Source: Candidatus Margulisiibacteriota bacterium (GTDB taxonomy: Bacteria > Margulisbacteria > WOR-1 > O2-12-FULL-45-9). Taken from it: a DNA stretch of 53,943 bases. Position numbers and translations under genes: made by a program. The stretch is from contig JAYEOW010000003.1 in the NCBI GenBank assembly GCA_034723395.1, positions 1 to 53,943 of the forward strand, in the 5' to 3' direction. Positions within the stretch are counted from its first letter, which is position 1; every line of letters begins with the position of its first letter. Below, piece after piece: positions 14,887 through 26,056 of this stretch. Under the pieces are notes generated by a model that was given only the letters and a program-made list of their open reading frames with translations, was not told the origin of the DNA and did not search any database.

Positions 14887-14960
14887 CACTTTCAGCTCGC
14901 CTGTTACTGAGAGTGATCAGTTTGAATGAACCACGACAATTTAACGGGCGTGGTTTTTTT
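14887..14960 (+). promoter_or_regulatory. Structured 5' leader (attenuator-like) of the giant gene
   Basis: Hairpin cactttcag/ctgagagtg, then aaccacg/cgtggtt stem followed by a T-run, between the promoter and ATG 14992. Confidence 0.55.
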
Positions 14961-14991
14961 GTTTTAAAAGGAGATCCACTAGAGGGACAAT

Positions 14992-17900
14992 ATGAATCCA
15001 CCAGGCGCAGTAAACAGTGTAAATCAAATAAGGCCCGTTAACCCGGCAAACCCCAACCAACCGGCCGAAGAAGCATACTGGTGTGATCCCGATAATCCCG
15101 ATCCGATAACCCTCGCCTCTGCCGATCCTTCTTACATCGCCGCCCAAGCTGTTTTAAACCGCCAGGAACAGGATGATTTTGTTGCCGATGTCCTCGGGGA
15201 AAACACCCCGGTTTCAGCCTACAACATGCGCCTTTTTATTAAAGTGACCAACTCCCTGGTCAACGACCAGACCTCGTATTCATTAACCCAGACTACAGTT
15301 AACACAGCCTTAAACGACCCACGAATGAAAGATATGCTCCGCCTAAAATTCTATCAGTTACTCTCTAAATCCATTATTCAACCTTCAGCGGTAGCAATGC
15401 CGAGCGAAGAGGCTACACCTATCCAGAATGTCGCATCCCGTCTCCTCTCCCAGGACATCCTGGACCCCAAAATTACACGGGATTTCCGCGCGGGCCGGAT
15501 CCGATTGACCATTAAATTTTTAAGAAAAAAGGGAGAGATCGAAGGGTTCCAGGTCTTCTTCCAGTACGGGCAGTACCGACAACCGATCGCCGAATATCGC
15601 GATGGCCGCATCACTCAGATGCCGGGACAGGACACAGTCGGCCAGGGAGCGGTAAAATACCTGCAGAGACTGCTTTGGGGTGCAGGATATCTCGATCGGA
15701 GCGGCCGCGGATTTATCTACGGAGTTTTCTGTAAAACTACCCTTGAAGCGTTGTACCGTTATTTATCAGAGAACAACCTGTTAATGAACTTTAACAGCAA
15801 TATCTCCCTCCACATCCTGCAGCAAAGGTTAAAAGAGGCCAACCGCTCTTACTTAAAGTTTAAGGCCGCTCCCGATGACTCCTTAAATAATCGGGTCCTC
15901 AAATATCAAGCCGCAAAAATGGCCCTCCGCAGAATGAGCGCGGTGATCCAGATCGCAAAAAGATACGCTAATTTGCCAACCGAACGCCTCTCTGCCAAGG
16001 AGAGAGCTTTCGTTGCTGAAAGTAAAAAGGCGATCCTCAGGTTTAGACGTTTAGCTAAAGCGTTGATCAGCAAGGTATTTTACGGGAAAGATGCTTTCTA
16101 TAAACTTGATCTAAGCGCTTTAGGGGCCAAGAAGAAAAAGTGGAAAAAGACTGCGGCCAGCAAAGCGAAAAAGAAGACAGAGCATTTTAAATCGTTGATC
16201 GATACAGCAGTCGGGATCCTTGGCAACCTGAGGACCTGGCAAAAGCTGGTAAGCGGAGACAGAGTGCTCCATAACCACATCCAGAGCCAAATTGATTTTT
16301 TTAAGCGCCGGCTTAGAAAAGTATATATTACCCGTTTCCCAAATCGTCCGCAGCATGTTGACCAGCTTATCCAGGAGATCGATCAGGATATAATGAGCCG
16401 GATCGCCGGGACATCCAGTGACGCGCAATCCGATCCTGCGGTTGCAAGACGCCAGCACGCGATTGCCGCCGAAATTTCAAAAAAGATGGGCAATAGTCCT
16501 GCGCGAGGCATAGTTATCTCTATTCTCCAGAGCTATATTCGTCAAGGAAAATCATTATCTAAAATAAGATCTCTGCTAAGAACCTTTGTTTTACTTTCAA
16601 ACCAACGCCCTGATCTGGTAAAACGTGTAGCCATGTTCTATCTTAGAAATCAGCTCCGCGCCGCACAGGGATTACCCGAAATCAGCCGCATGAATGAAGA
16701 CCTGCGGACCGACCTGCACAATTTCACTTCATGGGGAGACCTGAATAAATACTACAGACAGAAAGTTATGAACCTTGCATTTTCTTTCTACTCTTCTGTC
16801 CAGGCACATAACAACCTGGCTAATTCCAGCTTAAACAAACAGCCGCAAGCCAGAGTAAAACTGATCAAAGAGAAAGATGTTTCCATTTTAATGAAGATGG
16901 TTATGGAGCAGGTAAAGGATCTATCTAAAACTGATACTCGAAGAGTGCTCCAGATCGTCTCCGAATTATCTGAATCAACAACCGTTGCCAACTACGAATT
17001 ATCTGAACAATTAAGCACCAAGCTCGACCGGATCGCGACCGCCCGCACCGGATACACCGCCATGAACGGCGGATCAAGCGTGGTCGTTACCCCGCGAGCC
17101 CTCCATTCGCTTGAGCGTAAACTCACCACGACCGCAGCCCTGGATGGAGCGGTCCATTACGACCAGGTCCCGGCCCACCTTCGACCAAAAGGAGCTACAC
17201 CGCTTGACACTTTCTTTGTCTCTCCTTTTGGCGTACAAACCGTCCCTCGCGATATGCATATTAAAGTACGCCGGAGAAACAACCTGGCCGGAGTAGAACA
17301 TAGTTTTGATCCGATCACTTTTGCCAAAAACGAAAGGACCGCAATGATCAAACTTGCCCTCTGCCAATATGGACAGTGTTCTGACAGGGAAGATGTAATG
17401 CTAAGAGAAAGAGTTACCTCCCGCTTAACTGCATTAGATCTTCGCCGAACCAATGTCGTCTTTGGTGAATCAAGGTTCTGGATCCTTAACCCGGGGACCC
17501 TCGCCCTCCGCGGGATCGAGATCAAGGTCTTAAACCGGGTCGCGGATATGATCGAGAATGATACCGGAAGTTCCACCGTTATCTCCGGTGTTCTCAGAAA
17601 GATCACCAGCAGCGGCGGGGAAGTTAGATTAACTAAACAGGAAAAACAAGAGTTAGATAAATTCTTACGGTACTTTAATATTGACGACTACTATCCGGCA
17701 AACGCGGCTACTACCAACGCTCGGGAAAGATCCGCGCTTCAATCTGCAATTAAGAAACTGAAACGGGGAATGAGATTAATTTATCACAAGCTTGGGATCA
17801 CGCAGGAAGCGCAGGATATCCTTGCCAAGTTAGCCGGCTACCTTTCGGCGCATCCCGATATGGCCATTTATGATCCCCGCTTGAGCGGTAACCGTAAATA

Positions 17901-25989: not shown

Positions 25990-26010
25990 TGAATTCTGGA
26001 ACTTATAAAC

Positions 26011-26056
26011 GGTGGGGGCAGCATTTAACAGGCATGTTGCTTCCCACCTTTTTTTT
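26011..26056 (+). terminator. Intrinsic terminator after the giant gene
   Basis: ggtgggggcagcat / atgttgcttcccacc stem, loop ttaacaggc, then T8. Confidence 0.85.

Follow-up and report, generated by a model that had tools for sequence, protein, structure and literature searches.

A conserved RNA module of complementary hairpin loops at giant genes of Saganbacteria/Margulisbacteria-type genomes

In the countertranscript attenuation of plasmids pT181, pIP501 and pAMbeta1, a leader terminator depends on whether an upstream element is free or bound by a complementary RNA. Pairing between the two ends of one message is seen in hok/sok-type mRNAs, in which a 400-nt toxin mRNA folds its 3′ end back on its 5′ end (tac/fbi), and this linear end-to-end pairing blocks translation. 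Here we describe a set of hairpins around a gene for a 3,665-amino-acid (aa) protein in a 53,943-nt stretch of DNA (contig JAYEOW010000003.1, hereafter the window) from a Candidatus Margulisiibacteriota bacterium, the genome of which (1.68 Mb, 97% complete) is called G000 below. A sigma-28-like promoter is followed by a hairpin, P1, with the loop GCCUGU, then by an intrinsic terminator carrying ACAGGY, by the gene itself and by a 3′ hairpin with the loop WWAACAGGC. All three loops form part of an RNA module that is conserved among genomes of the Saganbacteria/Margulisbacteria type. To judge from the sequences compared here, we think it very probable that this three-part loop design is a hitherto undescribed RNA device for the control of very long genes.

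The module shares with pT181-type attenuation a leader that contains an intrinsic terminator and recognition through hairpin loops. In those plasmids, however, the partner is an antisense RNA made from its own promoter opposite the leader, whereas the mechanism proposed below involves no antisense gene. The complementary loop is encoded by the same strand at the gene's 3′ end, 11 kb further downstream, and the leader element would meet the terminator through a 6-nt loop contact. For an antisense promoter opposite the leader, we have only a general promoter scan, not a dedicated search, and it lists nothing but weak minus-strand sites at 14895-14866. What the module shares with hok/sok-type messages is complementarity between the 3′ and 5′ ends of one bacterial mRNA. 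It differs in that the complementary segments are two hairpin loops on an 11-kb mRNA and that a third partner sits in the leader terminator.

Three further systems come close in other respects. In the LoaP-dependent dfn leader of Bacillus velezensis, a small hairpin and then an intrinsic terminator precede a very long transcription unit, and the hairpin is needed for read-through (PMC12691694). A small hairpin and an intrinsic terminator in the 5′ leader are thus common to both systems. The dfn leader needs a specialised NusG paralog, whereas G000 has a single NusG-family gene, and neither complementarity between loop and terminator nor a 3′ partner is a feature known from the dfn leader. The Escherichia coli RNAs MotR, FliX, FlgO and UhpU are sigma-28-dependent regulatory small RNAs derived from the 5′ and 3′ untranslated regions (UTRs) of flagellar-sigma genes (PMC10578931); the elements described here likewise lie in 5′ and 3′ UTRs, of genes with sigma-28-like promoters. 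The E. coli RNAs are Hfq-dependent, act on other mRNAs and are not mutually complementary; no Hfq was found in G000. Last, the terminator loops of SdsR, RseX and ArrS act on the fepA 5′ UTR "likely without base-pairing", in a manner dependent on Hfq and RNase E (PMC11979758). These are also intrinsic-terminator loops that carry regulatory information read at a 5′ UTR hairpin, but the dependence on Hfq and RNase E is theirs, and the sequences are unrelated to the module.

Rfam holds no RNA family for the module: at gathering scores the window gave only nine tRNAs, and at E ≤ 10 the interval 14780-15120 returned five matches, all far under their thresholds. A literature search, with subscription journals outside its coverage, found no description of the motif.

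Hairpins at both ends of a giant gene

The elements at the giant gene are the following, in window coordinates.

14843..14868, + strand: sigma-28-like promoter of the giant gene, CAAGTTT-N14-CGATA (motif match; the likeness to sigma-28 is presumed rather than computed)
14887..14915, + strand: P1 hairpin, 9 bp, with an 11-nt loop at 14896-14906 and GCCUGU at 14899-14904 (fold, covariation)
14928..14965, + strand: leader intrinsic terminator, stem 14928-14935 with 14949-14956, 13-nt loop, T run (fold, covariation)
14992..25989, + strand: giant open reading frame (ORF), 3,665 aa, no Pfam family (ORF and homologues)
15033..15041, + strand: GCCCGTTAA within codons 14-17 of the giant gene, of uncertain status (perfect 9-nt complement of the leader-terminator loop UUAACGGGC)
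26011..26056, + strand: 3′ hairpin and terminator, stem 26011-26024 with 26034-26048, 9-nt loop at 26025-26033 (fold, R2 family, see below)

P1 pairs 14887-14895 with 14907-14915 (-10.5 kcal/mol when folded alone) and closes the loop CUCGCCUGUUA. The leader terminator has an 8-bp stem and a 13-nt loop, ACAAUUUAACGGG, ending in UUUAACGGG; seven T stand at 14954-14960, and the ATG is at 14992. Its hexamer, ACGGGC at 14944-14949, is a wobble variant of ACAGGC. The 3′ terminator starts 21 nt past the stop codon and consists of a bulged 13-14-bp stem, the loop UUAACAGGC and eight T at 26049-26056. Its folding energy is -20.9 kcal/mol (z -4.66), and none of 200 shuffled sequences folded as well. An earlier note on this DNA had reported GCCTGTTA at 14899-14906, ATTTAACGGGC at 14939-14949 and ATTTAACAGGC at 26023-26033, and all three are present at these positions. 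Separate folds bear out its statement that the stems of the two terminators are unrelated, and the 3′ loop UAACAGGC is, as it said, a perfect 8-nt complement of the P1 loop GCCUGUUA, which extends from 14899 to 14906. The leader-terminator loop UAACGGGC pairs with the P1 loop through one G-U.

The leader recurs in front of related genes. Homologues of the first 1000 residues of the giant protein, 2646-3719 aa in length, are encoded in seven other genomes of the 40 nearest, at 26-31% identity (longer matches). Five of the homologous genes are preceded by the same succession of CAAGTTT-N14-CGATA, hairpin, terminator, T run, ribosome-binding site and ATG; the P1 loop reads (U)UGCCUGU(U/A), and the terminator loop has (A)ACAGGY on its 3′ side. 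The suspicion that the short loop match was more than chance is therefore upheld, because the same layout recurs, at homologous genes and at their neighbours, in relatives with giant proteins this dissimilar; throughout a bacterial class, the GCCUGU and ACAGGC loops are kept, whereas the flanking stems covary.

We built a covariance model (R1) from seven leaders, the window's own among them, and searched a phylum set of 146 genomes, 65 in the window's class and 81 others. At E ≤ 0.01, R1 matched 34 of the 146 genomes, 32 of them in the class and two outside it (one of the two visibly false); because the genomes of one class are related, such counts are not independent events. G000 gave one match, and the window's leader, being one of the seven seeds, scored 74.3 bits. 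Paralogous leaders in G000 were also sought with blastn-short, and none appeared, only the shared promoter. Inspection by eye found promoter, P1, terminator, ribosome-binding site and ATG all present at 24 of 25 loci. A laxer search of 20 genomes in which the 3′ hairpin alone had turned up gave 24 weak matches, 13 of which (in eight genomes) carry GCCTGT...ACAGG. Across all prokaryotes, at one genome per species, a pattern of promoter plus TGCCTGT matched 90 stretches, against about 32 expected by chance from the pattern length. Among the 80 matches listed, 28 have a complete leader: 26 come from records titled Candidatus Margulisiibacteriota, Candidatus Saganbacteria or candidate division WOR-1 and two from records that name no group, whereas records titled as other phyla contributed none.

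The leader alignment holds 43 leaders from 29 genomes; 42 of its rows are distinct, and since one of these is a shortened form of another, 41 leaders are independent. All 16 stem pairs, nine in P1 and seven in the terminator, change on both sides. Paired cells make up 92.1% of the leader stems, compared with 71.3% in column shuffles (none of 500 reached the observed value) and 47-56% when the partners were slid by one column; the alignment was fitted to the structure of R1, which was itself seeded with the window's leader, and this favours the structure somewhat, although the margin is still large. P1 and the terminator are separated by a linker of variable length (about 3 to about 50 nt) without conserved columns. 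A riboswitch was rejected as unlikely because such a linker offers no ligand-binding core and Rfam gave no match. Two leaders (L042 and L043, from G016 and G020) have another promoter-like site, GAAATTT-N14-CGATAA, after the leader terminator and ahead of the start codon; the P1-terminator unit of these genomes may therefore be a free-standing small RNA gene.

The 3′ hairpin forms a family of its own, for which a second covariance model (R2) was built with the window's copy among the seeds. Its members have a GC-rich stem of 9-14 bp and the 9-nt loop WWAACAGGC and lie at most about 90 nt past the stop of a long ORF; the window's hairpin at 26011-26048 has all of these features. A GC-rich hairpin with the 9-nt loop UUAACAGGC, AAAACAGGC or AUAACAGGC follows 11 of 17 complete giant genes (2957-5413 aa), namely those of G000, G001, G005a, G016, G017, G021, G022, G034, G142, G143 and G011-C11, the last with two in tandem. 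The loop thus recurs beside the giant genes of relatives, one of two distributions that the earlier note had suggested looking for. The other, an enrichment of TTAACRGGC in terminator loops throughout the genome, did not materialise: both strands of the 1.68 Mb contain 16 matches against 48 in the reversed control, and the only copies in terminator loops of G000 are the two at the giant gene.

Across the 15 aligned 3′ hairpins, the AACAGGC loop is invariant, while 9 of the 10 stem pairs change on both sides and 90% of the stem cells are paired, compared with 69.5% in shuffles (0 of 500 reached the observed value). R2 at E ≤ 0.05 matched 51 of the 146 genomes, 45 of them in the 65-genome class; the six matches outside the class are weak. 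There are one to four copies per genome and exactly one in G000. Among the best 30 R2 loci, 24 sit 1-89 nt past the stop of an ORF that reaches the edge of the fetched DNA (23 of these ORFs have at least 476 aa); of the other six, two lie inside coding sequence, three are leader elements and one is in tandem. In the family f7, a 3′-type GC-rich hairpin stands directly behind P1, before the start codon, and serves as the leader terminator. This layout shows that a hairpin displaying ACAGGC is a single kind of element, used both as the leader terminator and as the 3′ hairpin.

Hairpins with AACAGGC loops also occur inside genes. Two homologous genes, of G036 and G027, have one with a 10-11-bp GC-rich stem about 430-450 nt from their starts (L081:646-698 and L087:649-701); the positions are homologous, and codons for (L/I)-T-G spell WTAACAGGC. 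Others lie near 1166 in L032 and near the oriented positions 2660 and 12412 in L033, and the in-gene hairpins overall are 430-870 nt from the start codon. A 24-nt in-gene hairpin is (nearly) identical in three paralogues of G005 and G011, the last stem base differing in one copy. In the window, a weak 5-bp hairpin with the loop AACAGGC at 9126-9145, about 125 nt into a 768-aa gene, may be chance. The 3′ hairpin is duplicated in tandem or about 600 nt apart at L117 (G139:C7), L037 (G011:C11), L096 (G028:C7) and L036 (G034). In G139, one 3′ hairpin lies inside the split loop of another, with small inverted repeats flanking it, as if the element had been inserted into the loop.

Such tandem or nested 3′ hairpins (in G011, G028, G034 and G139) hint at duplication or insertion at the DNA level, and GCCTGT and ACAGGC together form an inverted repeat. 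The hexamers might accordingly function at the DNA level, either as half-sites of an operator or as sites for recombination or mobile elements. The comparison of relatives leaves this explanation close to excluded, and with it a chance match. All copies are on the sense strand of the gene and at fixed places with respect to promoter, T run, ribosome-binding site and stop; the many G-U pairs in the stems would be C-A mismatches on the other strand; the stems covary while the loops are fixed; and recurrence in 29 or more genomes excludes chance.

Loop complementarity and a putative antitermination mechanism

The primary and most conserved partner of the P1 loop is the leader terminator itself, a point missing from the earlier note, as is the sigma-28-like promoter ahead of the unit. 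GCCUGU is present in the P1 loop, which has 8-11 nt in this leader family, in all 42 distinct rows. The complementary hexamer is found in every aligned leader; opposite GCCUGU, the terminator has A in 42 of 42, C in 39 (U in two), A in 38 (G in three), G in 40 of 40 and G in 37 of 37. Every one of the 196 cells of the five core loop-loop pairs holds a standard pair, and the sole variants, three U-G and two G-U, stem from A-to-G or C-to-U changes in the terminator copy that are tolerated in RNA of this strand only. These data are consistent with pairing between the loops and are not proof of it, since both loops are nearly invariant and so yield no proof by covariation. A check for compensatory changes between the 5′ and 3′ loops, which the earlier note had recommended, found only wobble-compatible single changes, in 5 of 196 cells, and no unpaired cell. 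With both partners practically invariant, the check cannot separate RNA pairing from protein binding.

In most leaders, the hexamer reaches into the terminator stem. In minimum-free-energy folds of the terminator region, the overlap of ACAGGY with the stem, mostly with its 3′ arm, is 2-4 nt in 30 of the 42 rows, 5-6 nt in six, 1 nt in four and 0 nt in two; the counts are approximate, as one row was scored on a similar hexamer further upstream. In G016 and G017, the leaders of the giant genes have the hexamer at the start of the 5′ arm (ACAGGCUUGUC paired with GACAAGUCUGU). The description of both ACAGGC-type copies as "in loop position" therefore holds almost fully for the window's folds but not across relatives, where the leader copy usually overlaps the terminator stem. 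Because of this overlap, pairing with P1 would compete with the top or all of the terminator, which is the logic of an antiterminator.

The isolated loop duplex has a mean energy of -11.1 kcal/mol. For 30 of 42 rows, two separate hairpins are favoured energetically over a nested fold with an imposed loop-loop helix, so a kissing contact between formed or forming hairpins fits the leaders; a refolding switch, in which the nested helix replaces P1 and the terminator, is disfavoured by the same comparison. Within the first 170 nt past the leader, GCCYGT occurs in 5 of 40 leaders, against about 1.5 expected. Copies inside the gene, such as the one at 15033-15041, were therefore rejected as a general third part of the module.

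As the working principle we take RNA-RNA pairing between loops. P1, we suggest, is a built-in antiterminator that pairs with ACAGGY, and the 3′ hairpin is a competitor for P1 through which completed transcripts exert feedback. On the strength of these comparisons, we put this forward tentatively, giving it somewhat less than an even chance. Transcription would start at the sigma-28-like promoter, and P1 would form first, its GCCUGU loop preceded by UU. Some 10-60 nt later, the intrinsic terminator would follow, with ACAGGY at the 3′ side of its loop and running 1-4 nt into the 3′ arm or, in one variant, forming the 5′ arm. The P1 loop would capture ACAGGY co-transcriptionally, on its emergence from the polymerase; this pairing would remove the top of the terminator stem, and read-through into the gene would be favoured. 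The 3′ hairpin shows (U)AACAGGC fully unpaired in a 9-nt loop (a perfect 8-mer in the window's gene) and would be the better kissing partner for P1. Completed transcripts, or exonuclease-resistant 3′ fragments of them, could then fill P1 loops on the same mRNA or on leaders still being transcribed. With P1 occupied, the leader terminator would re-form, which would amount to negative feedback from finished 11-kb transcripts.

A number of observations weigh against this proposal. In the window, the hexamer lies almost wholly in the terminator loop, so that antitermination through stem invasion is weakest in the very leader from which the analysis set out. Many leader-bearing genes encode only 650-1200 aa and have no 3′ hairpin of their own, and 6 of the 17 giant genes lack a clear one: those of G009, G011a, G013 and G140 have none, and those of G036 and G138 are followed only by ACGGGC or AUAGGC. 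Several 3′ hairpins (in G005a, G016, G017 and G022) have no T run, from which it follows that the 3′ element is not always a terminator; a gene bracketed by two terminators, as the earlier note had it, is found at the window's locus but not throughout the relatives. As for the pairing, no core loop-loop pair changes on both sides, the seventh possible pair (U31-A120) is broken without compensation in 13 of 42 rows, and the P1 loop shows none of the C-to-U changes that pairing would tolerate. Pairing alone does not explain the conserved UU before GCCUGU and AA before CAGGC, nor an invariant G in the 3′ stem, in the pair four positions under the loop (G-U in 11 of 15, G-C in 4 of 15). The use of an alignment fitted to the R1 structure belongs on the same side.

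Loop invariance fits recognition by a protein equally well. The ACAGGC loops could be sites of one sequence-specific RNA-binding protein, perhaps one affecting mRNA stability or termination, RNA pairing being secondary or absent. Its sites would be the leader terminator, the 3′ hairpin and the occasional in-gene hairpins, and the P1 loop would be a mimic or antagonist of these sites or would bind a second factor. Such a protein would account for two loops that are near-invariant beyond the needs of pairing, for conserved AA and UU flanks that have no pairing partner, for the loss of the seventh pair and for a P1 loop free of tolerated C-to-U changes, as well as for a 3′ loop fixed at 9 nt above an invariant G and a preferred G-U. 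We nevertheless regard it as unlikely, although worth serious consideration, because there is no candidate protein (CsrA and Hfq were not found in G000), because the only hexamer substitutions seen retain pairing with GCCUGU and because the perfect complementarity of two independently conserved loops would be a coincidence. The two accounts are not fully exclusive, as a protein could act together with pairing. Control by CsrA/FliW was rejected, given that G000 has no CsrA match and that the conserved loops read GCCUGU and ACAGGC, not GGA; an Hfq-dependent mechanism was likewise set aside, Hfq not having been found in G000.

Processive antitermination is another way of reading a hairpin in a leader. 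P1 might load the polymerase or a factor, as put, nut and the LoaP hairpin do, against termination in the leader and within the gene, and the 3′ loop might strip the signal. A promoter-proximal hairpin followed at once by a terminator, before genes of 3000-5400 aa, suits this idea, and Rho is present, so that long genes would need protection. The layout also resembles the dfn leader (PMC12691694). In LoaP-type leaders the intrinsic terminator behind the hairpin depends on NusA. Yet the 97% complete G000 has one NusG-family gene, and the NusG paralog that defines the dfn system was not found there, which led us to reject a LoaP-like mechanism. Moreover, the leader also precedes genes of 650-1200 aa, known systems need no complementarity between the signal and a terminator loop, and several 3′ hairpins are not terminators. 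Processive antitermination in general seems improbable on these grounds.

A sigma-28-like regulon and the meaning of the module

The promoter motif CAAGTTY-N14-CGATW has 24 sites in G000, compared with three in a reversed-sequence control. It precedes three consecutive large genes of the window, at 9008, 11365 and 14992 (768, 1152 and 3665 aa), and in relatives it precedes the leader at 24 of 25 inspected loci. The consensus for sigma-28 (FliA) is TAAAGTTT-N11-GCCGATAA, which we take the motif to resemble. Further sites in G000 lie before large orphan genes of 1838, 1911 and 952 aa. The two upstream sites in the window are the following.

8935..8960, + strand: same promoter type before the 768-aa gene, without the leader module (motif)
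11322..11347, + strand: same promoter type before the 1152-aa gene, here without the leader module (motif)

Relatives of the 1152-aa gene in G017 and G022 do carry the leader module.

G000 encodes a FliA/WhiG-like sigma factor (135 bits, under the cut-off of 189.6 bits) directly before flgB/flgC-like genes, and also FlhA and a promoter-driven protein with a sub-threshold FliK-like domain. Its flagellar-type export genes are at C55:4610-5700, C46:20458-22422 and C16:499-1779. Flagellin, FlgM, CsrA and Hfq were looked for in G000 and none was found. In the phylum set, FlhA is present in 135 of 146 genomes and Flagellin_N in 15, of which one is among the 65 of the window's class.

The proteins behind the leaders are orphans in several weakly related families. 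Above the cut-off, Pfam assigned no family to the giant protein and its two upstream neighbours, nor to any of 20 downstream proteins of relatives, which gave only two sub-threshold matches. Among 17 further promoter-driven proteins of G000, one has a nucleotidyltransferase-type family above the cut-off and one is the sub-threshold FliK-like match. Large orphan proteins without signal peptides make up most of the sigma-28-like regulon and could be substrates of the flagellar-type export apparatus. Residues ~216-265 of the giant protein (window 15640-15790) form a peptidoglycan-binding-like stretch, for which a protein atlas lists PG_binding_1 clusters with scores of 0.77-0.79, a lead only.

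This setting bears on a further explanation, in which the loops join the 5′ and 3′ ends of one mRNA and circularise or compact it, for stability, translation or delivery to the flagellar-type export gate, with no feedback on termination. In the window's gene, the 8-nt complementarity is perfect, and it is conserved in relatives; the very stable 3′ hairpins follow the stop codon at 1-89 nt; and a flagellar-type export apparatus without flagellin coexists with sigma-28-like promoters before the genes and with a giant protein that lacks a signal peptide. Such a contact would not, however, explain why P1 has its most conserved partner in the leader terminator, 30-60 nt away, rather than at the 3′ end, or why leaders stand before genes without a 3′ hairpin, and we think it improbable.

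Some features of the window lie apart from the module. The upstream 1152-aa gene ends in a Pro/Thr-rich tail encoded by ACA/ACT/CCT repeats (14700-14800), short GGTTATT/TTGGTTATTGG-like repeats stand between the 3′ terminator and a convergent HIT-family gene (26140-26220), and the nine tRNA genes are at 3507-5038, 8239-8312 and 45885-46189.

Even on a conservative reading, the conserved elements define two new RNA families, and the module is the mark of a regulon in which large orphan proteins are linked to a flagellar-type apparatus that lacks flagellin. Margulisbacteria are noted for numerous very large genes (10.1101/2023.11.21.568195). The control and completion of 10-16-kb single-gene transcripts in bacteria have hardly been studied, and the module offers a compact, sequence-defined handle on this problem of long transcripts: it is made up of three hairpins with two mutually complementary hexamers, and an entire class of uncultured bacteria has conserved it.

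If the 3′ loop does act on the 5′ leader as we propose, the module would represent a new attenuation logic, in which the regulator is supplied by the gene's own 3′ end, and a rare bacterial instance of long-range communication between the 5′ and 3′ ends of an mRNA. The giant gene might even report its own completion, as only a transcript finished 11-16 kb away would yield the 3′ loop that strips the P1 "key" from the leader terminator. This could happen in cis, if the two mRNA ends come together, or in trans, with a stable 3′ fragment acting on all leaders of the regulon. We consider this extension possible, if on the unlikely side. Were it true, it would be an RNA-only, chaperone-free feedback from the 3′ end to promoter-proximal termination, and it would act on the late sigma-28-type genes of a flagellar-type export system without flagellin.

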